A stretch of DNA of 32,000 nt from Mucisphaera calidilacus (GCF_007748075.1 NZ_CP036280.1:480001-512000), one strand, 5' to 3'; positions 3,935 through 27,078 are shown, counted from the stretch's first letter. The notes: generated by a model from the letters alone, not told the origin. A program made the numbers and translations.

Positions 3935-3982
3935 GGCTGTCTGCGTGACTCCGTTGTTTCGTTGTAAGTTTCTTGTTCGCTG

Positions 3983-4001
3983 TCGTGTATCTCAAACACG
4001 A
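3983..4001. promoter_or_regulatory. Inverted repeat TCGTGT-N7-ACACGA in the divergent intergenic region between 2786..3934(-) and 4117..5934(+)
   Basis: Perfect 6-bp arms read directly from the sequence (tcgtgtatctcaaacacga). It lies in the only non-coding stretch between two divergent genes. Function is unproven. Confidence 0.25.
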
Positions 4002-4116
4002 TGACGTACCCGAGTGATCCGCATCGGGCCAGCAGGAACGCGAGGCACTGGTGAAACACCGATGATCCCCCTATCGTCTGCGCCCTCGCCATCAACCACA
4101 CCCCTCAGGAGTCGTC

Positions 4117-5934: not shown

Positions 5935-6043
5935 TCACCCCATTAATCGCCTTAATGAAGCATAAATGCATGTCATACATGCGAATAAGCGAATAATGGC
6001 CTTGTGGCCATGAAAAATCTGCGCAAATTCTCGTTCAGATCAC

Positions 6044-6071
6044 TTGACAAGAGGAGTTTCTGGTCTAGATT
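6044..6071 (+). promoter_or_regulatory. Candidate sigma70-type promoter (TTGACA-N16-TAGATT) for the LacI-family gene
   Basis: TTGACA at 6044-6049 and TAGATT at 6066-6071 with a 16-nt spacer, inside an AT-rich island in a high-GC genome, 84 nt upstream of the GTG start. Planctomycete promoter rules are poorly known. Confidence 0.4.
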
Positions 6072-6100
6072 ACACGGGTAATCAATTACGCGGGTAATCA
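6069..6100. promoter_or_regulatory. Tandem pair of 16-bp pseudo-palindromic operator-like sites (ATTACACGGGTAATCA / ATTACGCGGGTAATCA)
   Basis: Two adjacent 16-mers differ at one position. Each has ATTAC..GTAAT arms around a central CG, which is the architecture typical of LacI-family operators. They overlap the putative -10 box. A third half-site, GGGTAATCACC, occurs at 5928-5939. Confidence 0.45.
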
Positions 6101-6154
6101 CCCGATCGACGTCTCTCACCGTTTCGACTCCCGACCCCTGACCGAGTTTTTATC

Positions 6155-7216
6155 GTGGCCGTAACCGCATCCGACATCGCCCGAAAGCTAGGCATCTCAC
6201 GGCAGACCGTGAGCAAGGTGCTCGTCGGCGGCAAGACCAACGTCCGCGTCAGCGACCGCATGGCCACCCGAATCCAGAAGGTCGCCGACGAACTCGGATA
6301 CCGTCCCAACACCGCCGCCCGTCTCGTTTCCCAGGGCCGAAGAGGGTCGATCGACCTGCTGATGTCCACCGAACGCGGGTCCAGCGTGCTGCCCATCGCC
6401 CTGATCAACAGCATCCACGACAAGCTCATCGGCCTCGACCTCCAGCTGACCGTCACTAGGCTGCCCGACAGCCAACTCACCGACGCCAGCTACGTCCCCA
6501 AGATCCTGCGCGAGCACTGCGCCGACGGCATCCTGATCAACTACACGCACCACGTGCCCGTGGATCTGCCGCCCCTGCTCGACAAGCACAAGATCCCCGC
6601 CGTCTGGATCAACATCCGTCGCGAGAACAACTGCGTCTACCCCGACGAGGTCGCGGGGACGCGAAAAGCCACCGAGCACCTGCTCGGACTCGGACACACG
6701 AAGATCGCCTTCCACATCCTCTCCGAGCACGGTCACTTCAGCGAGTGCGACCGACGCCTCGGCTACGAGCTCGCCATGCGCGACGCGGGCCTGATGCCTC
6801 AGGTCGTTCGCGCCGGCGCACGCCCGCGTCAGGAGTGTGACGCCCACCCGCTTCAGGACGACCGGCTCGAGCGTGTTCTCGCCTGGCTCAAAAAACCCGA
6901 TCGCCCCACCGCCATCGTCGCCTACGCACCGATCGATACCGTCGTGATCGCCTACGCCGCCGCACAACTCGGCCTCACACTCGGACGCGATCTCTCACTC
7001 GTCGGCGTCAGCGACGACGGCGTCACCAACCCGCTGGGCATCGCGATGACCCAACTCGTCACGCCGCAGGCCGAACTGGGCGCCAACGGCATCCGGATGC
7101 TCATGCGGCAGATCGAAACACCGGCGCTGCCGCTGGACCCACGCCCCGTCGAGGTCCCGCTGACACTCGGGCACTCCACCGGTCGCCACGAATCAACCGT
7201 TCGGGGGGCACGATGA
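6155..7216 (+). CDS. LacI-family transcriptional regulator
   Basis: 353 aa with a GTG start. N-terminal HTH 'VTASDIARKLGISRQTVSKVLVG' is followed by a periplasmic-binding-protein-like sugar-binding fold ('ADGILINYTH', 'PTAIVAYAPIDTVVIAYAAAQLGLTLGRDLSLVGVSD'). Confidence 0.9.
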   Translation: MAVTASDIARKLGISRQTVSKVLVGGKTNVRVSDRMATRIQKVADELGYRPNTAARLVSQGRRGSIDLLMSTERGSSVLPIALINSIHDKLIGLDLQLTVTRLPDSQLTDASYVPKILREHCADGILINYTHHVPVDLPPLLDKHKIPAVWINIRRENNCVYPDEVAGTRKATEHLLGLGHTKIAFHILSEHGHFSECDRRLGYELAMRDAGLMPQVVRAGARPRQECDAHPLQDDRLERVLAWLKKPDRPTAIVAYAPIDTVVIAYAAAQLGLTLGRDLSLVGVSDDGVTNPLGIAMTQLVTPQAELGANGIRMLMRQIETPALPLDPRPVEVPLTLGHSTGRHESTVRGAR

Positions 7217-7280
7217 ACACACCGTCAGAGTCATTGTGTCCCGTGTCATCTCTGTTTACTCACGTTTTGGAGGATGAAAG

Positions 7281-8063
7281 ATGAAGACTCGCTCCGCCTC
7301 GTACCTGATCGCGGCCATCGCCGCACTCCCCGTCGCCTCGGCAACCGCCGGCGTTATCACCTTTGACCCCGCCGACGGATACACCCTCGGCAGCTCTCTC
7401 GTCGTCCATCCCGACTGGGCCGGCGACGGGTCGCTCTACAGCGTCACGTCACTCGGTGGCGGCAACGGCGCCGCCCAGAGCGCCGCCACCAACCAGACCA
7501 ACTTCGCCAACAACCGCTACACCCCCGACGCCGGCTTCCTCGGCACCCCCGACACCACCACCGCCGGCAATGTCTACGACTTCAGCTTCCAAATCCGCAA
7601 CGACGCCTCGCTCGGCTCGTTCGACTGGGGCGTGGCCCACCGCATCCGCATCGGCGGCAGCGACTCGGCCCCGATGATCCAGTTCCAGATCTTTGACCTC
7701 GGCGTCGTGCAGTACAACAACGGCGGCGGCTCCACCAGCGTCACCAATATCAACGACGCCCGCTTCGATATGGACGACGCCACCGGACGCTTCATCACCG
7801 TCGAGGGCTCCATCGACATCGATGCCGGCACCTACGACCTGAGCTTCGACGGCGTGGTCCAGGGAACCGGGCTGGGGCTCATGAACGTCCCGTCCGACTT
7901 CGGCCAGATCACCCTCCAGTGGGGACCGAGCAACCTCGCTCCCGACTACCGCCAGATCAGCCTCGACAACCTGGCGATCGACGCCGTACCCGTTCCCGAG
8001 CCCGCGAGCTTCGGCCTGGGACTCCTCGGCATGAGCATCGTCGCGCTGCGTCGCGCTCGCTGA
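7281..8063 (+). CDS. Secreted PEP-CTERM protein with a ~200-aa beta-sandwich/lectin-like domain of unknown function (paralog A)
   Basis: GGAGGA RBS 6 nt upstream of the ATG. Signal peptide 'MKTRSASYLIAAIAALPVASATA'. C-terminal 'VPVPEPASFGLGLLGMSIVALRRAR' is PEP, then a TM helix, then an Arg cluster. The body is paralogous to 8187..9332. Confidence 0.85.
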   Translation: MKTRSASYLIAAIAALPVASATAGVITFDPADGYTLGSSLVVHPDWAGDGSLYSVTSLGGGNGAAQSAATNQTNFANNRYTPDAGFLGTPDTTTAGNVYDFSFQIRNDASLGSFDWGVAHRIRIGGSDSAPMIQFQIFDLGVVQYNNGGGSTSVTNINDARFDMDDATGRFITVEGSIDIDAGTYDLSFDGVVQGTGLGLMNVPSDFGQITLQWGPSNLAPDYRQISLDNLAIDAVPVPEPASFGLGLLGMSIVALRRAR

Positions 8064-8186
8064 ACCAACAGCAGGGGGGTAAGGCCCAACGGCCTCGCCC
8101 CGCTTTGTGAGACACGTAATACGTTCGTCACCTCGTGTTCAGTCCCTCACTCGGATCCGATTCACCCCACAGGCTGGAGAACATCG

Positions 8187-9332
8187 ATGACCGCTAACGC
8201 CACACGCACCGCACTCGCCACCGTCGGAGCCTGCCTCGCCCTCGGCTCCAACGCGTCCGCCGGACTCGTCACCTTCGACCCCGTCGACTGGTACTTCCTC
8301 GGTACCTCGCTCGTCGTCCACCCCGAATGGGCCGGCGAGGGCACGCTCTACTCCATCGTCTCGCTCGGGAACGACAACGGCGCAGCCCAGAGCGCCGCGA
8401 CCAACCAGACCAACTTCGCCAACAACCGCTTCACCCCCGACGCCGCCTTCCTCGGCACCGACGACACGACCACAGCCGGCAATCTCTACAAGTTCGCGTT
8501 CCAACTCCGCAACGATCAGCAGGCCTCCACCGACGGCACCGATGACCAGTGGGGACTCGCCCACCGCATCCGCATCGGTGGCACTGATTCCGTGCCCATC
8601 GTCCAGTTCCAGATCTTCGACAACGGCCGCGTCCAGTACAACGACGGCGGCGGCTCGGTCAACGCCGTCAGCGAGAGCGGCAATAACTTCGACCTCGACG
8701 ACGCCACCGGACGCTTCATCGACGTCGAGGGATACATCGATATTGATGCCGGCACCTACCAGATCTCCTTCGACGGCGTCCTCCAGGGCACCGACCTCGG
8801 CCTCTACAGCAATCCCTCGGATTTTGGCCAGGTCACCTTCCAGTGGGGCCCCAGCAACAGCGCCCCCGACTACCGCCAGATCAGCATCGATAACCTCGAG
8901 ATCGCCGCCGTCGATGACCTCCCCGGACTCGCGGGCGACTTCAACATGAACGGCATCCTCGACGCGGGCGACATCGACCTGCTCGTCGAAAACCTCGGCG
9001 ACCCGGCCTACGACCTCAACGGCGACGACGTCGCCGACCAACTCGACATGGACCTACTCGTCACCGACGACGACTTCCTCGGCACGCTCTACGGCGACGC
9101 CAACCTCGACAAGAGTGTCGACCTGCTCGACCTCTCCGCGCTCGCCAGCAACTTCGACGCAGCATCCGGATGGGCCGGCGGCAACTTCAACACCGACACA
9201 CAGGTTGACCTGCTCGATCTCTCGATGCTCGCCTCCAACTTCGGCAACACCCCCGCGGCACCCGAACCGACCTCCGCCGCGATCGCCGCTTTGATCCTTG
9301 GTCTTGCCACGCTCCGCCGACGTATCGGCTGA
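8187..9332 (+). CDS. Secreted protein: lectin-like domain (paralog B) plus two dockerin-like Ca-binding repeat pairs plus PEP-CTERM
   Basis: GGAGAA RBS. Signal peptide 'MTANATRTALATVGACLALGSNASA'. The N-domain aligns with 7281..8063 ('NGAAQSAATNQTNFANNR[YF]TPDA'). C-terminal 'GDFNMNGILDAGDIDLLVENLG..DLNGDDVADQLDMDLLV' and 'GDANLDKSVDLLDLSALASNF...NFNTDTQVDLLDLSMLASNFG' are followed by 'APEPTSAAIAALILGLATLRRRIG'. Confidence 0.85.
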   Translation: MTANATRTALATVGACLALGSNASAGLVTFDPVDWYFLGTSLVVHPEWAGEGTLYSIVSLGNDNGAAQSAATNQTNFANNRFTPDAAFLGTDDTTTAGNLYKFAFQLRNDQQASTDGTDDQWGLAHRIRIGGTDSVPIVQFQIFDNGRVQYNDGGGSVNAVSESGNNFDLDDATGRFIDVEGYIDIDAGTYQISFDGVLQGTDLGLYSNPSDFGQVTFQWGPSNSAPDYRQISIDNLEIAAVDDLPGLAGDFNMNGILDAGDIDLLVENLGDPAYDLNGDDVADQLDMDLLVTDDDFLGTLYGDANLDKSVDLLDLSALASNFDAASGWAGGNFNTDTQVDLLDLSMLASNFGNTPAAPEPTSAAIAALILGLATLRRRIG

Positions 9333-9434
9333 TCCTCCTCCTGCCCGTGCGGTCTCGCGGCGTGTAAGCAGCGTCGCGGGACCGGGGGCTTACGCAAGAA
9401 GACCCGAATGCCAACCCAGCAAGGACACGCAACC

Positions 9435-10271
9435 ATGAACCATCAGCGACGCGCCTTCACGCTCATCGAACTCCTGGTCGTGATCTCGATTATCGCGTTG
9501 CTGATCGGGATCCTCCTGCCCGCGCTCGGCGCGGCCCGAGCCTCGGCACGCAACACCCAGTGCCTCTCCAACCTACGCCAGGTCGGCATCGGCATGTACG
9601 CCTACCTGACCGACAACAAAGACCAGATCGTCCCCGGACGATCCATCACACCCGGCACCGGCGGCGACGTCCTCGAGGTCCACTACGCCGCCATCCTCTC
9701 GCAGACCGGCTACGGCGTCGCCGACGACGTCCTCGACAACCCCGATGACCTCTCCGGAAACACCATGTTCCGATGCCCCGAGGGACTCGACGAGGTCAAG
9801 GTGCCCGGCGATCCCGCGGCGCCCCAAAGCCAGACGGACGAGGAGGGGCTCAAGGGCTGGCGGGCCTTCTTCGCCTACAGAGGCCAGACCCGCGCACGCG
9901 TCGATACCTGGTATGGCGTCAACACCATGCAGATGGACAACGCCGTCGGAGCCTACTACTTCGAGTCCTTCCCCATGTCCGACGTCACGCCCCAACAACC
10001 CATGACTCAGAAGATCACCAAAATCCACGAACCCTCCAAAACCGCGATGATCTACGACGGCATCGAGGTTCACAACGGCAACTTCAACCGACTCAGCCTC
10101 CGCCACGGCGGGCAGTCGTCCATGAATGTTCTGCTGGCAGACGGACACGTCGAGGGCTATCAGGAAAGCGAAGTCCCCGCGCCCGGCACCGGGATCGGAA
10201 GCCCCTGGCCAACCTCCATCGGCAACCTTGGCGACTTCCCGGCCCTCAACTGGCGCATCAACAAGCCCTGA
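9435..10271 (+). CDS. Prepilin-type N-terminal cleavage/methylation domain protein, DUF1559 / H-X9-DG family (type II secretion pseudopilin-like)
   Basis: '[35 protein letters not shown]' is the class III signal plus the hydrophobic pilin helix. C-terminal '[21 protein letters not shown]' resembles the H-X9-DG processing-associated motif. An alternative in-frame ATG lies at 9408. Confidence 0.9.
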
Positions 10272-10327
10272 CCCACTCCACCGACACAGCACGATCAACA
10301 CGCCGCACGCACCCGAAAGGTAGACCT

Positions 10328-12136
10328 GTGCCCGCCTATCGTCTCCTCGCACTGCTCCTCATCGTCGTCATGGCCGCACCGTCGTTCGCTCAGAACACGG
10401 CCGAAAACGCCCGTCACATCGGCATCGCCCGCCAGCCCATCCTTGGCGGCGAAGCCGCGAGCGATGCTCGCCTTGAGATGCTCAGAGATGACCAGACCGA
10501 CGGCCATGGCCACGGCTTCCGACTCACCACCGTCAAACAGCCCGCACACCACTACAGCATCGAGGTACGCTTCCTCCTCGACGCGGGCTTCAAGGCCGGC
10601 GACGTCGTCCACGCCACCTTCTGGGCACGCTCACGCGACGCCGCCCGCTACGAAACCTCCGAAGCCCTCACCCTCTTCCGCGTCCAACGCACCGGCCCGC
10701 CCTGGGAACGCACGCTCTACCGCGAGTGGAGCGTCGGACCGCACTGGCGAAAGTGCACGATCGCCAGCCGCGTCGACAAAGACATCCCCGCCGGCCAGAT
10801 CGCCGCCGTCTTCTCCGGCGGATACCCCAGACAGGCCATCGAGGTGGCCGGCCTCACGATCACCAACTACGGGCCCGACGCCGACCCCGACACGCTCGAG
10901 CAGTCCACCTTCGAATACGTCGGCATGGAACCCGATGCACCCTGGCGGCGAGACGCACTCGAACGCATCGAGAAACACCGCAAGGCCGAGATCCCGCTAC
11001 GCGTCGTGGACCGCGACGGACGCCCCGTGCCCAACGCACGCGTCGAAGCGATCCTCTCCCGACACGACTTCGACTTCGGCGTCGCCATCAGCGCGACTTG
11101 GCTCAATGAAAACTGGGACACGCCCGAAGGACGACGCTACCGCGAGGAACTCACACGCAACTTCAACGCCGTCGCCATCGAGAACGCACTGAAGTGGTCC
11201 TGGTGGGAACGCGAGCCGGAGACCGCACTACGCACCCTTGACTGGTTGCACAAGGAGACCGACCTCCGGATCCACGGCCACGTCCTCGTCTGGCCCGGTC
11301 TCGAGAAGTTCCGCACCACCGACGCCCAACCTCTCTGGGAGGCAGCCCAGAAAAACCCCGACATGCTCCGCGCACGCATCGACGCCCACATGCAGTCGGT
11401 CCTGCTCGCCACCCGGGGCATGATCGACGTCTGGGACGTCGTCAACGAGGCCTACAACCAGAACGAGATCATCCACTTGCTCGGCGACGAGATGATCGTC
11501 CACTGGTTCCAGCGTGCACGACGCTTCGCCCCCAAAGCGACCCTGATCTACAACGACTTCGCCCTGCTCGGCCAGAGCGGGAGAAACAAGATCAAGCAGC
11601 AGTTCGTCTACGACCTCGTGAAGAAGGCACGCGACGCCGGCGCACCGATCGACGCCATCGGCCTCCAGGCGCACCTCGGCAGCAGCTACACCCCACCCGA
11701 GCGCGTGCTCGCCATTATCGACAAGTTCGCCGAGCTGGACGTCAACATCCAGATCACCGAGTACGACATCTCGATCATCGATCCCGTCGTCGCCGAGCAG
11801 TACACCCGCGACCTCATGATCGCGGTCTTCAGCCACCCGGCGGTCACCACCTTCCAGGGCTGGAACTACTGGTCGGCCACGCCGACGTGGATGCCCGAAG
11901 CCGCCTACTTCGCCGATGACTGGTCTCTGCAACCGATCGGCCGCGCCTACGTCCAACTCGTTCAGAACGAGTGGCAGACCCACGAGAAGCTCCGGACCAA
12001 CCGCCAGGGCGTCGCGCGACTCCGAGGCTTCAAGGGCGACTACGACGTCCACGTTCTCACGCCAGACGGCAGACAATCGCTGCACGCCGTCCGGCTCAGT
12101 GATGACAACACCGCTATCGACCTCGTCGTGGAGTAA
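10328..12136 (+). CDS. Secreted GH10 endo-1,4-beta-xylanase with an N-terminal CBM4_9/CBM22-like module
   Basis: GTG start at 10328 preceded by GAAAGG. Signal peptide 'VPAYRLLALLLIVVMAAPSFAQ'. GH10 hallmarks: 'AIENALKWSWWE', 'IHGHVLVWPG', 'WDVVNEAYNQNE' (acid/base Glu), 'GLQAHL', 'IQITEYDIS' (nucleophile Glu). The ORF-track extension 9773..10327 overlaps the previous gene and is Arg/Pro-rich junk. Confidence 0.9.
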   Translation: MPAYRLLALLLIVVMAAPSFAQNTAENARHIGIARQPILGGEAASDARLEMLRDDQTDGHGHGFRLTTVKQPAHHYSIEVRFLLDAGFKAGDVVHATFWARSRDAARYETSEALTLFRVQRTGPPWERTLYREWSVGPHWRKCTIASRVDKDIPAGQIAAVFSGGYPRQAIEVAGLTITNYGPDADPDTLEQSTFEYVGMEPDAPWRRDALERIEKHRKAEIPLRVVDRDGRPVPNARVEAILSRHDFDFGVAISATWLNENWDTPEGRRYREELTRNFNAVAIENALKWSWWEREPETALRTLDWLHKETDLRIHGHVLVWPGLEKFRTTDAQPLWEAAQKNPDMLRARIDAHMQSVLLATRGMIDVWDVVNEAYNQNEIIHLLGDEMIVHWFQRARRFAPKATLIYNDFALLGQSGRNKIKQQFVYDLVKKARDAGAPIDAIGLQAHLGSSYTPPERVLAIIDKFAELDVNIQITEYDISIIDPVVAEQYTRDLMIAVFSHPAVTTFQGWNYWSATPTWMPEAAYFADDWSLQPIGRAYVQLVQNEWQTHEKLRTNRQGVARLRGFKGDYDVHVLTPDGRQSLHAVRLSDDNTAIDLVVE

Positions 12137-12142
12137 GACCGC

Positions 12143-14044
12143 ATGCCGTCCGTTCGCCGAGCTCTGATGATCATGACGCTGATGGCATGCAGCGGCGCAA
12201 CCGCCCACGCAGCCACCGGCTTCAGCGACGACTTCGAGCACGGCGGCCAGCTGCACATCACCGGCGACGGCTGGCGTGCCGAAACCTGGGAAGAGGTGCC
12301 CGGCTCGGATCGGCTACGCGTGACACACGCATCGCGTGCCGGCGACTACGGCGTGCGCTTCTCGCTCTTCCGCAACGACGAGTACGTCGAGACCAGCAAC
12401 CGCACCGAGCTCAAGAAAGACACACGCCCGGGCGACACGTTCGGCATGGGCAACAACGGCGACGAACGCTACTACCGCTGGAACATCTTTATCCCCAACG
12501 ACTACCAGGTCGATACCCACCCCGACGCCTTCGAGATCGTCGGCCAGCTCCACCGATCACCCGATGGCGGACAGGCGTGGAAGAGCCCGCCCATCGACCT
12601 CGCCATCAAGGGCGACCAGTGGCACATCAACATCAACAACGACGGAGCCGGCTACGACGCCGACCTCGGCACCATCCAGAAAGGCGTCTGGACCGAGTTC
12701 GTCCTCCACACGATCTGGTCGCCGGGCAGCGACGGCCAGACCACGCTCTACCGCAACGGCGCCGAGGTGTTCAGCCAGCAGGGCCCCAACACCTACGGCA
12801 GCCACTACAGCGACAACGACTTCTTTCTCAAGGTCGGCGTCTACAAGCCCTACTGGCGCGACACCGACACCCCCTACACCGTCAAGTCCAGTACCTGGCA
12901 ACGAACCTTCGTCTACGACGACGTCCTCGTCGGTGACGCCGGCGAATCCCCGCAGTCGATGCGCTCCGAACAACCCGCACGGCCCATCGAGATCCATCGC
13001 TACGGCACCCACGAGCACGGCGCCGACGCACGCGTCGTCGGCAACGGCTCCGATCGCCACCGCTACAACACCGGAGGATCAACACGCCTGGAGAGCCGCG
13101 GCAGCGACTGGAGCGGAGCGCAGTACGCCACCTACCTGCGCTTCGACCTCAGCGATTCGGCCCTCCCCATCGTCGCCGACGCCACCCTTCAACTCGTCCT
13201 CGAACTCGATCAGAACTACCCCCTCGACGTCTACGCCGTGCCCGACGCCTTCACCGGACGCGAGGACGGCTACGGCCTGCCCGAGTTCGGCGAAACCGAA
13301 TGGACCGAGGGCAACGGCTCTTGGAGCCTCGCGACCGGCACCGAGATCAATGGCGATCGCGCCCCGGGTTTTGACGAAACCACCGGCTTGCCCGACACCG
13401 CGGTTCTCGAGTTCATCGGGACCATCGCGACCACCGGCGGACTGCGCGATGATTCAATGGTCGAACTGACCTCCACAGCACTCATCGACGCCGTCGCCGC
13501 CGACACCAACGACCAGATCACCCTCGTGATCGTCGCCCGCGACACCAGCGGCAGCGGCACCTGGATCCACAGCAAGGAATCCGATACCGATCTCGCGCCG
13601 AGCCTCGAAATCATCACCCAGGCGCCCGAGCTGCCCAGCGACTTCAACCTCAACGGCGCCGTTGACGTCGACGACGTCGACATCCTCCTCGCCAACCTCG
13701 GCCACCCGGGCTTCGACCTCACCAACGACCGCCGCTCCGACCTCGCCGACTTCGACGCCATCGTCACCGGCGACGCTTTTCTCGGCAGCCTCCTCGGCGA
13801 TATCAACGGCGACCTGGCCATCGACCTGCTCGACCTGAGCATCCTCGCCGCCAACTTCGACACCAACGCCACCGGCACGCTGCCCTACACCCTGGGCAAT
13901 CTCAACGCCGATCACGCCATCGACCTGCTCGACCTGAGCATCCTCGCCGCCAACTTCGGCAGGACCGCTGTGCCCGAGCCCGCAGCCACGGCCCTGCTCG
14001 CCGCACTCCCCACTCTCCTCCGACGACGCCGGAGCCACGCCTGA
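12143..14044 (+). CDS. Secreted multidomain polysaccharide lyase: concanavalin-like lyase domain (PF14099-like, heparin lyase I / glucuronan lyase superfamily) plus DNRLRE-like beta-sandwich plus two dockerin-like pairs plus PEP-CTERM
   Basis: Signal peptide 'MPSVRRALMIMTLMACSGATAHA'. The lyase-like core is 'NRTELKKD...YYRWNIFIPNDY...FEIVGQLHRSPDG..SPPIDLAIKGDQWHININ...FFLKVGVYKPYW'. 'STRLESRGSDWSGAQYATYLRFDLSDS' resembles the DNRLRE domain motif. The C-terminal module runs from 'DFNLNGAVDVDDVDILLANLG' to 'AIDLLDLSILAANFGRTAVPEPAATALLAALPTLLRRRRSHA'. It starts 6 nt after the GH10 stop. Confidence 0.8.
   Translation: MPSVRRALMIMTLMACSGATAHAATGFSDDFEHGGQLHITGDGWRAETWEEVPGSDRLRVTHASRAGDYGVRFSLFRNDEYVETSNRTELKKDTRPGDTFGMGNNGDERYYRWNIFIPNDYQVDTHPDAFEIVGQLHRSPDGGQAWKSPPIDLAIKGDQWHININNDGAGYDADLGTIQKGVWTEFVLHTIWSPGSDGQTTLYRNGAEVFSQQGPNTYGSHYSDNDFFLKVGVYKPYWRDTDTPYTVKSSTWQRTFVYDDVLVGDAGESPQSMRSEQPARPIEIHRYGTHEHGADARVVGNGSDRHRYNTGGSTRLESRGSDWSGAQYATYLRFDLSDSALPIVADATLQLVLELDQNYPLDVYAVPDAFTGREDGYGLPEFGETEWTEGNGSWSLATGTEINGDRAPGFDETTGLPDTAVLEFIGTIATTGGLRDDSMVELTSTALIDAVAADTNDQITLVIVARDTSGSGTWIHSKESDTDLAPSLEIITQAPELPSDFNLNGAVDVDDVDILLANLGHPGFDLTNDRRSDLADFDAIVTGDAFLGSLLGDINGDLAIDLLDLSILAANFDTNATGTLPYTLGNLNADHAIDLLDLSILAANFGRTAVPEPAATALLAALPTLLRRRRSHA
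13817..13958 (+). repeat. Intragenic perfect 43-bp direct repeat (13817-13859 and 13916-13958), period 99 bp, encoding the two 'AIDLLDLSILAANF' half-dockerin segments
   Basis: gccatcgacctgctcgacctgagcatcctcgccgccaacttcg occurs twice, read directly from the sequence. Confidence 0.9.
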
Positions 14045-14048
14045 TTCC

Positions 14049-15698
14049 ATGAAGTACCTGTTCCTGACCATCGGCCTGCTGCTTCTTCTGTTCGGGTCCG
14101 CGCTGTGGTGGACCTCGCCTGACGCCAGCTCGGACGTCCCCGTGCTCTACTGGATCACCGACCGCAACCCCATGCGGACCGATCAGGTCAACCGATTCCA
14201 CCGCTGGCTCGTACGCGAGGGACACGGCCGGGAAGTGGTCATCGCGACCCCCCAGGACGCCCAGCGACTGCGCCACGGCATCGCGCCGACCCTCGCCGAC
14301 GACATCATCGCCGGTCAGCCCGAGACCGCACCCATCTTCGACGAGAACATCGACGCCTCGAAACTGCCCATCACCGTCCGTATCCCCGCCTTTGAACTCA
14401 GGCTCGACACCGCCAACAAGGACACCACCAAACAGAAAATCCAGTCGGTCTCAGGCGTCGCCAGCGACCTCATGGACATCTTCAACGGCGAGAACATGCG
14501 CATGTTCCAGGCCATGAACGTCCTCGCCGACGTCACCGATGCCGCCCACACCCACAACTTCGACCTGAGCCAGACCTACAGCAGCCTCGAGGCCGAGCTG
14601 TGCGTCGACGGCCGACAGTACATGTTCCCCTGCAACGCCGGAACCCTCTCCTACTGGGTCAACATCGACACATTCGAGCAGCACGGCATCCAGCCCCCGC
14701 CACGACGATGGACCGTCCAGGAGTTCGAACGCATCGGCGTCGCCTTCTGCGAAGCCGCCAACCGGGGCAAGCGCCGACGCGACGTCTTCTTCGCCGATTC
14801 CATCGACATGCCCACCCTCTACCGCGGGTACGGCGCTTCGGTCTACAACGAGACCCTCACCGCGGCCGCCATCGACAGCCCCGGCTACGTCGAGGCGCTC
14901 AAGACCATGAAACGCTGGATCTACGACCTCAACATCCTCCCCACACCCGACGACCAGGACTCCTTCTCGACCGGACAGGGCTTCAAGGGTGCTTCGCTCC
15001 AGCTCTTCGCCTCAGGCAACTACGCGATGATCTACGGCGGCCGCTACTTCCTGCTCCAGTTCCGCCAGATGAACGGACTCGGACGCATGACCGTCTCGGA
15101 AGTGCCCCACGCCGTCTTCCCCAACGGCACCATCGGCACTCGCGGCACCGCCGTCTACCGAGGCAGCCCGCACCAGGACCTGGCCGTCCTCTTCCTCGCC
15201 TACCTCAACAGCCCCGACTACAACATGCAGATCGTCCGCTCCGCCGACGCGCTGCCGCCCAACCCCCGATACCTCACGACCCCCGAATACCTGGCGCCGG
15301 CCGAGTATCCCAACGAGCACGACGTCCACCAGGGCTTCGCCGAGATCACCCGCAGCATCGCCGTCGCCGGCGAGTACAGCCCCTTCGTACTCCCCGACGT
15401 CGTCATGATCAAGGTGCGCTACTACGAGGAACAGTTTACGGTCGGCATGATCACCGCCGAGCAGGCCGCCAGACGGACCGCCGCCGCCATCAACCGCGAG
15501 ATCGCCCGCTTCCTCGACGAGAACCCCAACCGACGCGAGCTCTACGACCAACGATGCGAGCTCCAGCAAAAGATCGACCGTCTCAAGGCATCGGGTCAGC
15601 CCGTCCCGCGCGACTGGGTCGCCAACGCCTTCCACAAGGCCTACCTCGAGCACCTCGGCATGCTGACCGACTCCACCCCAACATCGGAGGAGGAGTAA
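14049..15698 (+). CDS. ABC transporter substrate-binding protein (family 1 / CUT1-like), N-terminal membrane anchor
   Basis: 549 aa. Starts 4 nt after the lyase stop. N-terminal 'MKYLFLTIGLLLLLFGSALWW' has no lipobox Cys. SBP-like segments: 'LSYWVNIDTFEQHGI', 'LFASGNYAMIYGGRYF'. Two permease genes follow directly. Confidence 0.8.
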   Translation: MKYLFLTIGLLLLLFGSALWWTSPDASSDVPVLYWITDRNPMRTDQVNRFHRWLVREGHGREVVIATPQDAQRLRHGIAPTLADDIIAGQPETAPIFDENIDASKLPITVRIPAFELRLDTANKDTTKQKIQSVSGVASDLMDIFNGENMRMFQAMNVLADVTDAAHTHNFDLSQTYSSLEAELCVDGRQYMFPCNAGTLSYWVNIDTFEQHGIQPPPRRWTVQEFERIGVAFCEAANRGKRRRDVFFADSIDMPTLYRGYGASVYNETLTAAAIDSPGYVEALKTMKRWIYDLNILPTPDDQDSFSTGQGFKGASLQLFASGNYAMIYGGRYFLLQFRQMNGLGRMTVSEVPHAVFPNGTIGTRGTAVYRGSPHQDLAVLFLAYLNSPDYNMQIVRSADALPPNPRYLTTPEYLAPAEYPNEHDVHQGFAEITRSIAVAGEYSPFVLPDVVMIKVRYYEEQFTVGMITAEQAARRTAAAINREIARFLDENPNRRELYDQRCELQQKIDRLKASGQPVPRDWVANAFHKAYLEHLGMLTDSTPTSEEE

Positions 15699-15702
15699 CG
15701 CC

Positions 15703-17217
15703 ATGCCCGCCACCCGCAACCAGAAAAACCAACGCGTCGCCCTCGCCTTCCTCGCGCCCAACCTCGCCGGTGTCCTCGTCTTTACCCTCTACCCCGTCGT
15801 CTTCAGCCTCGTCATGGCCTTCACCAACTGGGACCTCACCCGCCACAACCAGTTCCAGGACGAGAACAGCATCCGTTTCATCGGATTCAAGCACTTCCTC
15901 GACATGGTCGCGCCATCGGGCGAAGGCCTCTTCGCCGGCCCCTTCTGGCAGTACCTGGGCAACACCCTCTTCTTCATGATGGGCATCCCCCTCGCGGTCG
16001 TCGGCTCGCTCATGGCGGCGCTGCTCCTGACGCAGCAAGGCGTCGCGCCACGCTACGGCCGACTCATCGGTTTTATCATCGCCTCGGCCGGACTCATCGC
16101 TTCCGTCGCCATCATGGTCCTCTACGGATCTGCCGAGACCGGGACCACCCTCCTCTTCGTCGGCTTTATCTCACTCGTCCTCGTGGGCGGGCTGACCTTC
16201 GGGACCACCTGGTTCCGCACACTCTTCTACACCCCGCACTTCGTCGCCGGCGTCGCCACCTACATCCTCTGGAAGAAGCTCTACAGCCGAGACTCCGGGC
16301 CGATCAACCAGGTCCTCCAACCCGCCCTCGACGGCTTCGCCGCGACCGTCAACGCCGTTCCGCCCGCACTCGTCACCACCGCAGGCTGGGCACTCGCCCT
16401 CATCGCCATCATCCTCGGTTACCTCTGCTCCTCGGTACTCGCACGCAACGCGGCACGCCGTGTACTCCCACGCGTCACCCTCGCCGTCTGCCTGCTCCTG
16501 CTCGCCGGCCCGCTGCTGATCTGCCTCCTCATGGCCCTGAACCCCGCTAACCCGATCATCGGCATCGTCACCGCCACGGCCCTGATCCTGACCTACGCCG
16601 GCCGCCTGCTCCCCCATCTCGCCGGCACGCTCAGCGTCCGATCCACCCAGACCGGCGACCCCGGCCTGATGGTAATGCTCATCATCCTCACCGCCATCGG
16701 GCAGGCCCTGCTGCTGGGTCTTGCCCTGGTCTTTCTCAACCTCCCCGCCATGGCCGCCGACGGACTCGACGCCCCCAGCTGGCTCAACGACCCCAACTTC
16801 GCCAAGCCCGCCCTGATGATCATGGTCCTCTGGGCCGCCATCGGATCCAACAACATGCTCCTCTATCTCGCGGCACTCACCAACGTGCCCAAAGAACTCC
16901 ACGAAGCCGCCAGCATCGACGGAGCCTCGGCACTCCAGCGGTTCTGGAGCGTCACCCTCCCCGAACTCGCGCCGACCACCTTCTTCATCTTCGTCACCTC
17001 CACCATCTACGGCCTCCAAGGCGGCTTCGAGATGGCACGCGTCATGACCGAGGGCGGACCCGCAGGCGCCACCACCACCCTCAGCTACTTCATCTACCAG
17101 GAGGGCTTCCAGGCCGGACGACTCGGCTCCGCCTCCGCCATCGCTTGGATGCTCTTCCTCCTGATCTTTGGCGTCACCGTCATCAACTGGCGCTACGGAG
17201 GCCGATCCGATGCCTGA
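15703..17217 (+). CDS. Carbohydrate ABC transporter permease (MalF/UgpA-like) with extra transmembrane insertions
   Basis: 504 aa. EAA loop 'LHEAASIDGASALQRFWSVTLPELAP'. The N-terminal 'LAFLAPNLAGVLVFTLYPVVFSLVMAFTNW' is typical of CUT1 permeases. About 12 hydrophobic segments by eye, against the usual 6. Confidence 0.9.
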   Translation: MPATRNQKNQRVALAFLAPNLAGVLVFTLYPVVFSLVMAFTNWDLTRHNQFQDENSIRFIGFKHFLDMVAPSGEGLFAGPFWQYLGNTLFFMMGIPLAVVGSLMAALLLTQQGVAPRYGRLIGFIIASAGLIASVAIMVLYGSAETGTTLLFVGFISLVLVGGLTFGTTWFRTLFYTPHFVAGVATYILWKKLYSRDSGPINQVLQPALDGFAATVNAVPPALVTTAGWALALIAIILGYLCSSVLARNAARRVLPRVTLAVCLLLLAGPLLICLLMALNPANPIIGIVTATALILTYAGRLLPHLAGTLSVRSTQTGDPGLMVMLIILTAIGQALLLGLALVFLNLPAMAADGLDAPSWLNDPNFAKPALMIMVLWAAIGSNNMLLYLAALTNVPKELHEAASIDGASALQRFWSVTLPELAPTTFFIFVTSTIYGLQGGFEMARVMTEGGPAGATTTLSYFIYQEGFQAGRLGSASAIAWMLFLLIFGVTVINWRYGGRSDA

Positions 17218-18085
17218 ACCCGCCTCCACGACCCTCGTCCACCGCAAGTCGCTCGGGCTCCGCGCACGCCACGCCACGCTCTGGTCCCTGCGCCTCATCA
17301 CCCTCACCATCCTCGCCTTCACACTCACCCTCCCCTTCCTCTGGATGATCCTCACCAGCCTCAAGCACCTCTCCGAGGTTGGCGTCAACGCATGGCTGCC
17401 CGGCGAGATGGGCTGGCAGTGGTCCAACTACCCCGAGGTCTTCCGGCAGATCCCCTTCGCACGCTACTACCTCAACAGCATCTTCATCGCCGCCAGCGTC
17501 ACCTTCCTCAACGTCCTCACCTCCGCCTGCGCCGCCTTCGCCTTCGCACGCGTGCAGTGGGTCGGCCGCGACAAGATCTTCCTCGTCTACCTCGCCACCA
17601 TGATGATTCCCGGACTCGTCATCATGATCCCCAACTACCAGCTCATGATTCAGCTCGGACTCGTCGACTCGATGGTCGGCCTGATCCTCCCCGCCTCCTT
17701 CTCCACCTTCAGCACCTTCCTGCTCCGGCAGTTCATGCTCTCGATCCCACGATCCATCGACGAGGCCGCCGAGATCGACGGCGCCTCGCCCTGGCAGCTC
17801 TTCTGGGAGATCATCCTCCCCCTCGCACGGCCCGGACTGGTCACCGTCACCATCATCACCTTCATGGGCACCTACAGCTCCTTCTTCTGGCCGCTCGTCA
17901 TGCTCAAGAGCGACCACACGTACACCCTGCCCATCGGACTCCTCGCCTTCGACTCCACCGCCGGCCAGGCCACGCACCTGCTCATGGCAGGCGTCGCCAT
18001 GTCCGTCATCCCCATGATCATCGTCTTCGTCCTGATGCAGAAGCAGCTGATCGCCGGCATCCAGGTCGGCGCGGTCAAGGGATAA
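17210..18085 (+). CDS. Carbohydrate ABC transporter permease (MalG/UgpE-like)
   Basis: ATG at 17210 overlaps the upstream stop (ATGCCTGA). EAA loop 'IDEAAEIDGASPWQLFWEIILPLARPGL'. Size is canonical. The ORF-track start at 17168 is less likely. Confidence 0.9.
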   Translation: MPEPASTTLVHRKSLGLRARHATLWSLRLITLTILAFTLTLPFLWMILTSLKHLSEVGVNAWLPGEMGWQWSNYPEVFRQIPFARYYLNSIFIAASVTFLNVLTSACAAFAFARVQWVGRDKIFLVYLATMMIPGLVIMIPNYQLMIQLGLVDSMVGLILPASFSTFSTFLLRQFMLSIPRSIDEAAEIDGASPWQLFWEIILPLARPGLVTVTIITFMGTYSSFFWPLVMLKSDHTYTLPIGLLAFDSTAGQATHLLMAGVAMSVIPMIIVFVLMQKQLIAGIQVGAVKG

Positions 18086-18146
18086 GCCGGCACCACATTT
18101 CCACTAAACTCAGCCCCGCCAAACGACCCATACCGAGGATCCCCCC

Positions 18147-19439
18147 ATGACCACATGGATCTGCACTACACCCGACAAGCCCTGGCAGGACCACTCCGGC
18201 AGCCTCGCCAACGCCGCCGACAGCGACTCCAACCTCCAGCTCACCGACACCCGCGACCAGACCATCCTCGGCTTCGGCGGATGCTTCAACGAACTCGGCT
18301 GGGAAGCCCTCTCATGGCTCGATCCCGACCAACGCGACCAGATCATCCGCGACCTGTTCGACCCCGAGGACGGCTGCCGCTTCTCGTTCTGCCGCGTGCC
18401 CATCGGCGCCAGCGACTACGCCGTGAGCTGGTACAGCCACAACGAGACCGAAGGCGACCTCGACATGAACGCCTTCAACATCGACCGCGACCACCAGTAC
18501 CTCATCCCCTACATCAAGGCCGCCATCGCCCAGCAGCCCGACTTGCGCCTCTTCGCCTCGCCCTGGAGCCCGCCGACCTGGATGAAACAGCCCAAGGCGT
18601 ACAACTACGGCACCCTCGTCTGGAACGAGCAGAACCTCAAGGCCTACGCCCTCTACCTCCTGAAATTCGTCCAGGCCTACCAGCAACTCGGCCTCGACGT
18701 CCGACAGGTCCACGTCCAGAACGAACCCAACTCCGACCAGAAATTCCCCTCCTGCCTCTGGAAGCCCGAGCAGTTCGCCGAGTTCATCGGCGACTACCTC
18801 GGCCCGCTCTTCGAACGCGAAAACAACCCCTGCGAGATCTGGGCCGGCACCATCGAACGCCCGGGCTACGACACCTGGCCCAACCGGATCCTCAGCGACG
18901 CCAAGGCTCAACGCTACGTCGCCGGCCTCGGCTTCCAGTGGGCCGGCAAGGGAGCCGTGCAAACCACCCACCTCGCCTGGCCCGACGTCCCCATCATCCA
19001 GACCGAGAACGAGTGTGGCGACGGGCAGAACACCTGGGACTACGCCCGCTACGTCTTCAGCCTCATCCACCACTACATGATCAACGGCACCTGCGCCTAC
19101 ACCTACTGGAACATGGTCCTCCCCGCCGGCGGACGAAGCACCTGGGGATGGCTCCAGAACAGCATGATCACCGTCGACCCCGAAACCCGCGCCGTCACCT
19201 ACCAGCCCGAGTTCTACGTCATGAAGCACCTCACACGCTTCATCGACAACGGCGCCACGCGACGCGGCCTCGCAGGCCCCCTCGCCGGCAACGCCCTGGC
19301 CTTCGAGAACCCCGGCGGGTCCACCACGCTCCTCATCGCCAACCCCAGCGACAACCCGCGAACCCTCGCCGTGGACATCAACGGCCAGTCACTCAGCGCA
19401 ACCCTCCCCGCGCAGAGCTTCAACACAATCGTGGCCTGA
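18147..19439 (+). CDS. Glycoside hydrolase family 30 (glucosylceramidase/xylanase-type TIM barrel plus beta-sandwich); no signal peptide
   Basis: GAGGA sits 7 nt upstream of the ATG. 'ILGFGGCFNELGWEAL', 'VPIGASDYA', 'LFASPWSPPTWMK', 'VHVQNEPN' (acid/base region), 'IIQTENECGDG' (nucleophile region). The N-terminus 'MTTWICTTPDKPWQDH' has no signal. Confidence 0.85.
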   Translation: MTTWICTTPDKPWQDHSGSLANAADSDSNLQLTDTRDQTILGFGGCFNELGWEALSWLDPDQRDQIIRDLFDPEDGCRFSFCRVPIGASDYAVSWYSHNETEGDLDMNAFNIDRDHQYLIPYIKAAIAQQPDLRLFASPWSPPTWMKQPKAYNYGTLVWNEQNLKAYALYLLKFVQAYQQLGLDVRQVHVQNEPNSDQKFPSCLWKPEQFAEFIGDYLGPLFERENNPCEIWAGTIERPGYDTWPNRILSDAKAQRYVAGLGFQWAGKGAVQTTHLAWPDVPIIQTENECGDGQNTWDYARYVFSLIHHYMINGTCAYTYWNMVLPAGGRSTWGWLQNSMITVDPETRAVTYQPEFYVMKHLTRFIDNGATRRGLAGPLAGNALAFENPGGSTTLLIANPSDNPRTLAVDINGQSLSATLPAQSFNTIVA

Positions 19440-19444
19440 AACCT

Positions 19445-20578
19445 CTAATTCCCCTCACGCGCCTGCGCCACCACGCGGTTCATCAGGGTCTGCCACGAGA
19501 CCCCCGCCGATTCGCCACGCAACCGCTCCACAACCGCATCGAAGGCAGGCTCGAAATACGCCGCCTGCTCGAACATCTCCAGCGACGACCGCGGGTCATA
19601 GAGCATCCCGGGCTGATAACCCGGCAGACCCGCCGCCGCACGCTCATGATCCAGCCGAACCCGCGAGTGACGCCACTCACGACGTTCCTTCTCACCACGC
19701 GCGTAAGGCAGAACATAAAGCACCGACTTGCGGATCGAAGCGCCCTCAGGCGACGTCCACGCGTACAGATCATCCGCACCCTCACCCAGGAGCATCGCGA
19801 TCTCCAGCGGCGGCCTCAACGCACTGCAGTGGTACGTCAGCGTGTCACGCTCCTCAAGATCGTAACTCGTCCCGTCAGGCCGCAGGCCATGCACGACAAA
19901 ACGCTCAACCGACGCAACCACCTCATCCAGCCAGTCGTCACAATCCAGAATCCGCGCACACACCGTCAACAGCCTCAGACGCTTGACGTAGCGGTTGCTG
20001 AAACGAGTCGCCCCCTGAGCACGCTCAAGGTGCGTCAACGCGAGTTCCTCCACCCAGCGATCCACAGCAGCCCGATCCTCGTCATCAAACGCCGGCCGCA
20101 AGGCCTCGTACGCAACCAGCAGCGGGTACAGCTTGTTCTCATTGACGTCATTCCCCGTAATCACATACGCCCCCGACCACGCCACAACACAACGCCCAAG
20201 CGTCGCCGCAGACCGCTCATCACCCGTCAACTGCCAGTCACGCACCAGCCAGGCCACATCACCCATCTGGCTCAGCGAACGACACGTCGCAACGCGCCTC
20301 GGGTCCGTGTGCACCAGCCCCTCATAATGAATCACCCGCAACGGCGTCGGCGCCATCCCACGCAGCCGTTCCGCACGCTCCGCGACCTCGTCGATCACCC
20401 CCCGCGCCTCGGGAAGATCCGCCGCCACACCGCGCAGCGTCGCGACCTGTGCACCCGTCAAAGGCAGCACCACCGGGATGTCAAACTCGCCCACACCCTC
20501 GTCAGCGCCACCGACCCGAGTCACAGCAAGAACCACGGCCAGAACCATCAGTACACAGAGCCATCGGGAACACGTCAC
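19445..20578 (-). CDS. Secreted alginate-lyase-family-like (alpha/alpha-toroid polysaccharide lyase) protein
   Basis: The ORF reaches 20632 (GTG). The GTG at 20578, with GAGG 6 nt upstream, gives a good signal peptide, 'MTCSRWLCVLMVLAVVLAVTRVGGA'. 'LRVIHYEGLVHTDPRR...AWLVRDWQLTGDERSA...VVAWSGAY' resembles the alginate_lyase (PF05426-like) N-terminal layout. The family call is from memory and is moderate at best. Confidence 0.55.
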   Translation of the reverse strand: MTCSRWLCVLMVLAVVLAVTRVGGADEGVGEFDIPVVLPLTGAQVATLRGVAADLPEARGVIDEVAERAERLRGMAPTPLRVIHYEGLVHTDPRRVATCRSLSQMGDVAWLVRDWQLTGDERSAATLGRCVVAWSGAYVITGNDVNENKLYPLLVAYEALRPAFDDEDRAAVDRWVEELALTHLERAQGATRFSNRYVKRLRLLTVCARILDCDDWLDEVVASVERFVVHGLRPDGTSYDLEERDTLTYHCSALRPPLEIAMLLGEGADDLYAWTSPEGASIRKSVLYVLPYARGEKERREWRHSRVRLDHERAAAGLPGYQPGMLYDPRSSLEMFEQAAYFEPAFDAVVERLRGESAGVSWQTLMNRVVAQAREGN

Positions 20579-20644
20579 ACAGCACCTCACGCGTAAAACA
20601 GTCAGCAGAACACACATTCTACCGACCACCACGCGCGACCCGCT

Positions 20645-26800: not shown

Positions 26801-27020
26801 GCGCTTCTCCAATCGATTGAACGGTTGTTGATCCGACAGCCAATGCCCCCGTGCCACGCGTCACCGCACGACACGCCTACAGGATAGCCGCTCAGCACCG
26901 GTTCCCACCCATCTTCTCCCGATGATTCCACGAAAACCTCACCACGGCCTCTCTCATCTCACCAGACCACCCCGCTTCACACCCCATGCCCTCAGACACG
27001 CAACCTCGCCCGAAACATGC

Positions 27021-27048
27021 TTGTCCTCCTCTCCTGATCTGCTATAAA
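27021..27048 (+). promoter_or_regulatory. Candidate promoter TTGTCC-N16-TATAAA for the 27079 gene
   Basis: Hexamers at 27021-27026 and 27043-27048 with a 16-nt spacer, about 30 nt upstream of a strong RBS (GGAAAGGAG) and the ATG at 27079. Confidence 0.35.
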
Positions 27049-27078
27049 CAGTGTTCACCTGAGGAAAGGAGAAAACTC

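Follow-up and report, generated by a model that had tools for sequence, protein, structure and literature searches.

Among the systems described so far, two kinds of polysaccharide utilisation locus (PUL) come closest to the one treated here. The Gram-positive-type PULs of Streptomyces and Bifidobacterium, which depend on a shared MsiK-type ATPase, combine a LacI regulator at their head, a secreted GH10 enzyme, a solute-binding protein with two permeases and no local ATPase, and, for the last steps inside the cell, glycosidases and a lyase that have no signal peptide. The SusC/SusD PULs of Bacteroidota follow the logic of a substrate-specific regulon with surface binding, an endo-enzyme, uptake and intracellular finishing. 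For planctomycetes, a 'fishing-rod' model, which Boedeker et al. are said to have put forward in 2017, reportedly deals with the uptake of dextran into the periplasm and with crateriform structures and fibres. According to a survey of 2024, no planctomycete cluster of carbohydrate-active enzymes (CAZymes) had been functionally characterised (PMC11131199). In the present study, we analysed a window of 32,000 nucleotides (nt) from Mucisphaera calidilacus (NZ_CP036280.1:480001-512000; G000:C1:480001-512000 in our numbering), a member of the Phycisphaeraceae with a complete genome of 3.49 Mb and about 65% G+C, in which ten genes at 6155-19439 all lie on the plus strand. We think it rather likely that these genes make up a LacI-autoregulated accessory glycan-utilisation locus, composed of a conserved core, an extension of lyase and ATP-binding cassette (ABC) importer genes and a GH30 gene, with a PL35-family lyase and a PF05426 protein travelling along.

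With the Gram-positive-type PULs this locus shares the LacI head, the secreted GH10, the binding protein with two permeases and no local ATPase, and the signal-less finishing enzymes. It differs from them in that the host is a diderm planctomycete, the first permease is enlarged to 504 amino acids (aa), and the locus carries PEP-CTERM proteins of lectin-like fold and a private DUF1559 pilin-like gene, neither of which is known from those PULs. The regulon logic of the Bacteroidota PULs is kept as well; however, import here would proceed through an inner-membrane ABC transporter, and LacI takes the place of a hybrid two-component system or an extracytoplasmic function (ECF) sigma factor as regulator. 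None of the 20 window products scanned matched SusC, a TonB-dependent transporter or SusD in Pfam, in agreement with the first-pass annotation, which had called this a PUL of the non-SusC/D kind. The 'fishing-rod' model likewise describes SusC/D-free polymer uptake, through fibres and an enlarged periplasm, and the present locus, known from sequence alone, offers candidate genes for it.

The gene content and order given in the first-pass annotation were reproduced by open reading frame (ORF) listing and translation, with families assigned by Pfam and NCBIfam: all ten genes were found at the coordinates expected, namely lacI, two PEP-CTERM genes (PEPA and PEPB), a DUF1559-type pilin gene, GH10, a jelly-roll lyase, a solute-binding protein, permease 1, permease 2 and GH30. 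From GH10 to permease 2 the genes are separated by 6 nt, 4 nt and 4 nt and by an 8-nt overlap, as had been claimed; the ATG of permease 2 is at 17210 and the TGA of permease 1 at 17215-17217. The remaining intergenic gaps are of 64, 123, 75, 56 and 61 nt. Co-transcription of the locus is what we infer.

The control region (5929-6108, plus strand), found by sequence scan, lies directly upstream of lacI. It contains a sigma-70-like promoter, TTGACA-16-TAGATT at 6044-6071, which has 10/12 matches and was the best promoter-like site in the 17 kb between 3800 and 21000. On the 3' side of this promoter, GGGTAATCA is present as a tandem pair of operator-like sites at 6076-6084 and 6092-6100, 16 nt apart, the former being embedded in the near-palindrome GTAATCAATTAC, and a third, distal copy at 5929-5937 overlaps the stop codon of the PL35 gene. 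Nine copies of GGGTAATCA occur in the 3.49-Mb genome, and three of the nine are here, within 170 nt. In G014, a genome of another genus whose proteins at the corresponding locus are 47-69% identical, the non-coding region contains TTGACG-17-TAGATT followed by CGGGTAATCGATTTCGCGGGTAATCACCCG. When the sites of the window and of G014 are combined, they give the consensus GTAATCGATTAC, a CG-centred palindrome just downstream of the -10 hexamer. A further locus, L034, has TTGACA-17-TAAATT and then two ATTACCCAYGCAATCAG units, in which ATTACCC is the reverse complement of GGGTAAT, that is, its inverted form.

CG-centred palindromes are typical targets of LacI-family repressors. The product of the first gene (6155-7216, plus strand) is such a repressor, with an HTH_LacI domain (PF00356, E 1.8e-9) and a periplasmic-binding-protein-like effector domain (PF13377, E 3e-20), and a palindromic site lies by its own promoter. 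We read this as lacI heading an autoregulated unit with its operator at the transcription start, where LacI would bind; the LacI-headed layout proposed at first is thereby borne out, with lacI in first place and the promoter and tandem sites ahead of it, both kept in G014. The scan of 3800-21000 found neither a second sigma-70-like promoter nor a plus-strand terminator inside the unit. In RNA folding, a GC-rich hairpin with a weak U-tract was obtained after PEPA; the one on the 3' side of PEPB (9350-9384, plus strand, in the fold of 9333-9434) has a perfect 14-bp stem and lacks a U-tract. The latter may act as an attenuator within the operon or stabilise the RNA, and with these hairpins the proximal structural genes may differ in expression level from the distal enzymes.

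The expectation that synteny would be conserved in relatives was confirmed, with cassette order judged on contigs of sufficient length. The full locus is present in G014, where a single strand carries PL35, LacI, PEPA, PEPB, the pilin, GH10, the lyase, the solute-binding protein, permease 1, permease 2 and the PF05426 gene at 47-69% identity and without GH30. In most genomes that have PEPA, it is preceded by LacI and followed, after PEPB where this is present, by the DUF1559 pilin and GH10, as in Phycisphaera mikurensis (G005) and in G049, G076, G078, G130, G132 and G055; G078 also has the lyase after GH10. G053, G050 and G084 have LacI, PEPA and GH10 in this order, with no pilin detected by tblastn in the interval from PEPA to GH10; in G053, gene calling on the same contig does place an N_methyl protein there. 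Contigs of metagenome-assembled genomes (MAGs) held further cassettes, one with the pilin first. Altogether, the cassette recurs in 11 Phycisphaeraceae genomes besides this one. LacI orthologues of 57-67% identity head the cassette in G014, G049, G076, G053 and G050. By gene order, the conserved unit is a cassette of 4-5 genes (LacI, PEPA/B, pilin and GH10), smaller than 13 kb. The proposal that the whole stretch of about 13 kb is the unit thus stands for this cassette and not for the rest, since the lyase and ABC extension is complete only in the window and G014, and GH30 is found in the window only.

The cassette also varies in its setting and in its parts. In G132 (L035, G132:C6, 8908-13547), LacI, PEPA, pilin and GH10 are located between flgE and flbD/motA, within a flagellar gene cluster, so that the cassette behaves as a portable module. 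The genus g63 (G120, L045 238-6502; G121, L046 1625-7650) has a variant with LacI, a distantly related PEPA and the pilin, in which the position of GH10 is taken by a product of about 1030-1070 aa that bears a weak GH39-like domain, and this argues for a modular architecture. The same-genus genomes G001 and G002 are without orthologues of GH10 and PEPA and have a paralogous ABC system only. A clean island could not be delimited against them, because the divergence is too great (69% identity for TolC, 52-54% for M14) and synteny is lacking in the flanks; no insertion boundary was therefore drawn.

Such a distribution might be expected if the neighbourhood were a mosaic, in which only LacI, PEPA/B, pilin and GH10 would be a functional unit, acting on neutral xylan, and the lyase-ABC genes, GH30, PL35 and the PF05426 gene would have been separately acquired and separately regulated for other substrates. 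The cassette does stand alone in most genomes, including its copy in the flagellar operon of G132, but G014 repeats the fused order at about 50-69% identity, GH10 is followed by the lyase in G078 too, and CBM96-like modules and PF05426 genes recur beside the minimal cassette elsewhere. The hairpins after PEPA and PEPB would suit separate transcripts, although GH10, the lyase and the importer are closely coupled by spacings of 6, 4 and 4 nt and by an 8-nt overlap, and the 3800-21000 scan found no second sigma-70-like promoter within the unit. For the mosaic there are, in addition, the absence of GH30 from G014 and a paralogous ABC system at 1.56 Mb that belongs to an unrelated GH4/PfkB locus. 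We consider it unlikely, and we continue with a LacI-controlled locus that has a conserved core and accessory extensions.

Next to lacI are the two PEP-CTERM genes. PEPA (7281-8063, plus strand) has a signal peptide and a PEP-CTERM motif (PF07589, 21.6 bits against a cut-off of 20.7). Its AlphaFold2 (AF2) model (pLDDT 90.5) is a concanavalin A (ConA)-like jelly roll, and its Foldseek neighbours are lectin-like domains of sialidase and galactocerebrosidase, PL7 lyases and a legume lectin, at TM-scores of 0.4-0.52 normalised by query length. The label 'lectin-like', given to these proteins earlier, is thus supported for PEPA by the model at the level of the fold. PEPB (8187-9332, plus strand) is a paralogue with 68% identity to PEPA across 238 aa, which also carries dockerin-like repeats (a weak Dockerin_1 match, E 0.0021) and ends in APEP, a hydrophobic stretch and RRR. 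PEPA was also considered as an enzyme of PL7 type. The fold is alike, but the PL7-type motifs of the PF14099 lyase are missing from the conserved columns of PEPA, and we therefore treat PEPA as a putative binding protein.

The PEPA family is small (a search of 1.84 billion representatives gave 41 clusters at E<=1e-3) and patchy, with members in 14 of 144 Phycisphaeraceae genomes and 8 of 70 genera, and none in the two same-genus genomes. On two MAG contigs, L031 (3793-6423, 876 aa) and L033 (12821-15334, 837 aa), GH10 bears a PEPA-like domain as an in-frame N-terminal fusion, which ties the lectin fold to the function of the enzyme. Signal peptides are present in PEPA, PEPB and the lyase, as are tails made of VPEP or APEP, a hydrophobic stretch and RRR (VPEP-TM-RRRR in the lyase), and two exosortase genes (PF09721) are encoded elsewhere in the genome. 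These sorting signals suggest surface binding and cutting outside the cell. A third protein, PEPC (26986-27747), resembles PEPA in the PEP-CTERM tail only. The module of dockerin-like repeats followed by PEP-CTERM ends PEPB, the lyase and a 2070-aa protein (20645-26857, minus strand), and tblastn placed it at about 97 loci genome-wide.

The pilin-like gene (9408-10271, plus strand; probable start 9435 by the public gene call) encodes a protein with a class III leader followed by FTLIELLVV, in which residue -1 is Ala and not the usual Gly. It matches N_methyl (PF07963, 31.5 bits, E 1.1e-7) and, in the first 27 profile positions only, SBP_bac_10 (PF07596, 28.9 bits, E 1.5e-6); TIGR04294 (H-X9-DG) gave no match at E<=0.01. 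The AF2 model (pLDDT 93.9) has an alpha-1 helix of about 50 residues and a globular head, for which Foldseek found no fold match in the PDB (best E 1.4), so that structure supplied no functional clue. Between cassettes the pilins are 43-62% identical, as compared with at most 37% to about 55 paralogues within the genome; judged from these identities, the cassette pilin is a distinct orthologous lineage. Pilin-like genes are also associated with LacI genes more widely, as 12 of the 14 LacI genes of the genome have one within 5 kb downstream on the same strand, whereas 2000 trials with random placement gave 0.55 on average and never more than 4. Most of the LacI loci of this genome also have a dockerin/PEP-CTERM gene nearby. 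Two more GH10 cassettes are located in the same genome, at about 455.7-462 kb and at 2297-2305 kb.

In the literature search no paper linking pilin-like genes to CAZyme loci turned up. The constant pairing of a PEP-CTERM lectin-fold protein with a private DUF1559 pilin was not met in the literature searched. As a tentative explanation, we propose that the private pilin and the PEP-CTERM ConA-fold proteins are a substrate-specific glycan-capture module, in which the pilin of each LacI regulon joins a shared pilus or pseudopilus that would fish the cognate polymer and bring it to the envelope, to be attacked there by the matching endo-enzyme; we consider this possible, though less likely than not. 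The same proteins could instead be helpers of export and anchoring, with the private pseudopilin adapting a common machine, of the type II secretion or type IV pilus kind, so that it carries the cognate GH10 and lyase across the outer membrane, and with the ConA-fold proteins as structural components of the surface. The canonical class III leader, the alpha-1 helix and a weak similarity to GspG/ComGC would agree with such a role, as would a prepilin peptidase encoded elsewhere in the genome and a GH10 that has a Sec signal only, in a locus where no other route through the outer membrane is evident. The lectin-type fold of PEPA speaks against it, however, and so do the fusions of L031 and L033, in which the PEPA-like domain is joined to GH10 in the manner of carbohydrate-binding modules. 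We regard a role as export helpers as quite improbable and keep glycan capture as the working proposal for these proteins, more tentatively so for the pilin.

The GH10 gene (10328-12136, plus strand) starts with the GTG at 10328, from which the signal peptide MPAYRLLALLLIVVMAAPSFA is translated; its only sorting signal is of the Sec type, and the product is predicted to be secreted. The family assignment is strong (PF00331, E 1.4e-41, 143.2 bits against a cut-off of 22.1), with 136 GH10 chains of the PDB matching at E<=1e-5. The acid/base of GH10 enzymes is the glutamate of WDVVNE and the nucleophile that of ITE-x-D, and the translation has WDVVNEAYN and NIQITEYDIS. The best PDB match is 7d88 (E 2.7e-36), the GH10 XynA of a Bacillus sp. 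(PMC13444322), and the closest solved relatives are ordinary xylanases. The protein is thus a predicted endo-beta-1,4-xylanase. It also has an N-terminal domain of about 200 aa outside known families and a C-terminal beta-sandwich; a relationship of the N-terminal domain to PEPA was rejected (hhalign probability 0.1).

The jelly-roll lyase (12143-14044, plus strand) combines a PF14099 domain (E 7.7e-32, 111.3 bits against a cut-off of 29.9) with CBM96/DNRLRE-like (34 bits for DNRLRE), dockerin-like and PEP-CTERM parts. All 4 known homologues share the motifs RTELK (87-91), GQLH (134-137) and FLKVGVYKP (228-236) without change, including R87, Q135, H137 and Y234; the motifs are similar to R-x-E-L-R, Q-I-H and Y-F-K-A-G-x-Y in PL7. 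The profile of the homologues matches the PL20 glucuronan lyase 2zzj remotely (E 1.3e-4). By Pfam and motifs the protein is PL7/PL20-like, with catalysis predicted. The jelly roll and motifs are alike in the PL20 endo-beta-1,4-glucuronan lyase 2ZZJ and the PL7 alginate/glucuronan lyases, at remote similarity; the present lyase differs in being fused to CBM96-like, dockerin-like and PEP-CTERM parts, and 4 homologue clusters of it are known. CBM96-like modules recur as stand-alone genes in cassettes of other genomes, and the founding CBM96 member binds alginate (PMC9971899).

Two further lyase-type genes flank the ten. Directly upstream of lacI, both in the window and in G014 (orthologue 48% identical), is a gene for a 605-aa protein (4117-5934, plus strand). 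It had been called heparinase II/III-like; the fold class was correct, and PDB sequence matches refine the assignment to PL35: 8khv (E 3.9e-70, residues 63-597), 9o3q, a 'PL35 chondroitinase' (E 7.1e-68), and 8khw (E 6.3e-62). Compared with the PL35 glycosaminoglycan lyases GAGase II (8KHV) and GAGase VII (8KHW), of which the former gives a full-length match, the protein keeps the equivalents of the GAGase II catalytic triad Asn192, Tyr246 and His401 as the N of SNWN, the Y of TVYW and the H of ANHNNLD, with a +22 numbering offset inferred from the alignment. Three of the four Mn2+ ligands are also kept (Asp405, Asp421 and His457), and His403 is replaced by Asn; the catalytic and Mn-ligand roles of these residues are those given for GAGase II (PMC12088678). 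The N-terminal signal peptide of GAGase II was removed for cloning (PMC12088678), whereas the present protein has no hydrophobic N-terminus and is predicted to be cytoplasmic. On the other side, a PF05426 alginate-lyase-fold protein (19445-20632, minus strand; E 1.7e-12) is predicted to be exported. Its profile weakly matches 3nfv, 7fhu and 8bdq (PL38), 7fhu being listed among PL5 structures (PMC12088678). Its orthologue in G014 is on the same strand, directly after permease 2, and that in G053/L034 is divergent from lacI.

The GH30 protein (18147-19439, plus strand) matches PF02055 (E 9e-46, 156.9 bits) and PF17189 (30.9 bits), that is, a TIM barrel with a C-terminal beta-sandwich, and has no N-terminal hydrophobic segment, which confirms the earlier description as signal-less. 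Its PDB matches 2wnw, 1ogs and 5ngk reach about 1e-36 to 3e-35, as against 1e-7 to 1e-13 for GH30 xylanases, and the model of the BT3312 endo-1,6-beta-glucanase gives 158.1 bits versus 38.7 bits for XynC. The closest similarity was not to GH30_7 or GH30_8, the glucuronoxylan-specific xylanase subfamilies. On these similarities the protein belongs with SrfJ, human glucosylceramidase and the endo-beta-1,6-glucanase BT3312, outside the xylanase clade, and is probably an exo-acting cytoplasmic beta-glycosidase.

The substrate had been proposed to be an acidic (glucurono)xylan-like polymer, on the ground that GH10 and GH30 occur together with uronate-type lyases. Our results lead away from this. 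Since GH30 is outside the xylanase clade and is absent from the fully syntenic G014 locus, GH10 and GH30 together are no pointer to glucuronoxylan. Polysaccharide lyases act by beta-elimination at O-4 of the uronate and thus only on 4-linked uronates. The terminal alpha-1,2-linked (methyl)glucuronic acid side chains of glucuronoxylan are, by established enzymology, unsuitable for them and would not be the lyase target. Three lyase-type genes therefore argue for a polymer with in-chain 4-linked uronate, and xylan with a co-occurring in-chain polyuronate (glucuronan- or alginate-like), or a mixed polymer, fits better. A more radical version would be that this GH10 clade acts not on ordinary xylan but on one heteropolymer of beta-1,4-xylosyl and 4-linked uronate, shared by GH10 and the lyases. 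CBM96-like modules and PF05426, PF14099 and PL35 proteins do repeatedly accompany the clade, but most cassettes are without any lyase, the catalytic motifs of GH10 are canonical and its closest solved relatives (7d88 and others) are ordinary xylanases. We find this version highly improbable and retain a predicted xylanase beside lyases for a co-occurring uronate polymer. Elsewhere in the genome there are a xylose isomerase gene (xylA) and a GH88-type hydrolase.

For import, the locus has the parts of a CUT1 importer, one SBP_bac_1 and two BPD_transp_1 proteins, with a MalK-type ATPase elsewhere. The solute-binding protein (14049-15698, plus strand; SBP_bac_1, E 3.2e-15) has hydrophobic residues at 4-22 and no lipobox Cys, from which an N-terminal membrane anchor is predicted. 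Permease 1 (15703-17217, plus strand; BPD_transp_1) has 504 aa with at least 10 hydrophobic segments and a UgpA/MalF-like C-terminal part; its extra length is shared by the counterpart in G014 and by the 1.562-Mb paralogue. Permease 2 (17210-18085, plus strand; BPD_transp_1, E 4.6e-17) has 6 hydrophobic segments. No ABC ATPase had been seen in the locus, and indeed no ABC_tran domain was found in the window, nor beside any of the 7 CUT1 permease pairs of the genome. As the genome has a single OB_MalK ATPase (G000:C1:128741-129544) for 7 permease pairs without their own, a shared MsiK-like ATPase is supported. The paralogous ABC locus at 1.56 Mb was tried as a clue to the substrate and was uninformative, its neighbourhood consisting of GH4, PfkB, GH38 and DUF2961 genes.

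Overall, the locus might work as follows. When inducer is absent, LacI would occupy the tandem GGGTAATC sites, which closely follow the -10 hexamer, and block the only strong promoter. In the presence of inducer the envelope proteins would be made, and the lectin-fold proteins and the pilin would capture or present the polymer. GH10 would then cut a beta-1,4-xylan-type backbone, and the jelly-roll lyase and the PF05426 protein would cleave a co-occurring glucuronan- or alginate-like polymer that contains 4-linked uronate. Import of the oligomers would fall to the anchored binding protein and both permeases, which would borrow the single MalK/MsiK-type ATPase of the genome. GH30 and PL35 would finish the oligomers in the cytoplasm, and the xylose isomerase and the GH88-type hydrolase would feed the products into central metabolism.

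Several points weigh against a single locus working in this way. Conservation is uneven for GH30 and for both of the flanking lyase-type genes, and most cassette copies have neither importer nor lyase; the extended locus could be a mosaic of independent parts. The hairpins after PEPA and PEPB could split transcripts. As the cell is diderm, a signal peptide is evidence of periplasmic export only. The enzymes here are without subfamily-level CAZy assignment. The His403 that is Asn in the PL35 protein matters to the related enzyme, the Ala mutant of GAGase II at this residue being inactive (PMC12088678). Finally, the PF05426 protein is, by its remote PL5/PL38 matches, only weakly similar to characterised lyases.

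With regard to the surroundings, GH30 on the plus strand and the PF05426 gene on the minus strand are convergent, with 5 nt between their stop codons (19439-19445). This leaves no room for a terminator, and their transcripts must overlap or end within coding sequence. An 813-aa ORF at 18155-20596 and other long overlapping ORFs were set aside as Arg/Pro-rich, out-of-frame artefacts of a genome of 65% G+C. The ORF at 2786-3934 (minus strand, 382 aa, no signal, single copy in the genome) had been labelled 'URO-D-like'; it has no Pfam or PDB sequence match and was left out of the system. GC skew in the window is -0.07 to -0.34 throughout; over the whole genome, in 50-kb bins, it varies locally from about -0.28 to +0.35 with no replichore-wide pattern.

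The question addressed by this locus is how polysaccharides are taken up in Planctomycetota without SusC/D. DUF1559 is among the largest families of unknown function in the phylum, and few of the papers searched mention it. The locus ties one DUF1559 lineage, a small new family of lectin fold and a GH10 clade into a co-inherited cassette under predicted LacI control with a readable promoter and operator, and two annotations are corrected by it, the 'heparinase-like' protein being PL35 and GH30 lying outside the xylanase clade. The value of the present copy is that it is the extended version, with importer, lyases, intracellular enzymes and a readable operator. If the glycan-capture proposal is true, the module would be the planctomycete functional counterpart of SusC/SusD and the surface glycan-binding proteins, and the present locus, which also has the importer and the enzymes of the cytoplasm, would be its fullest worked-out case.

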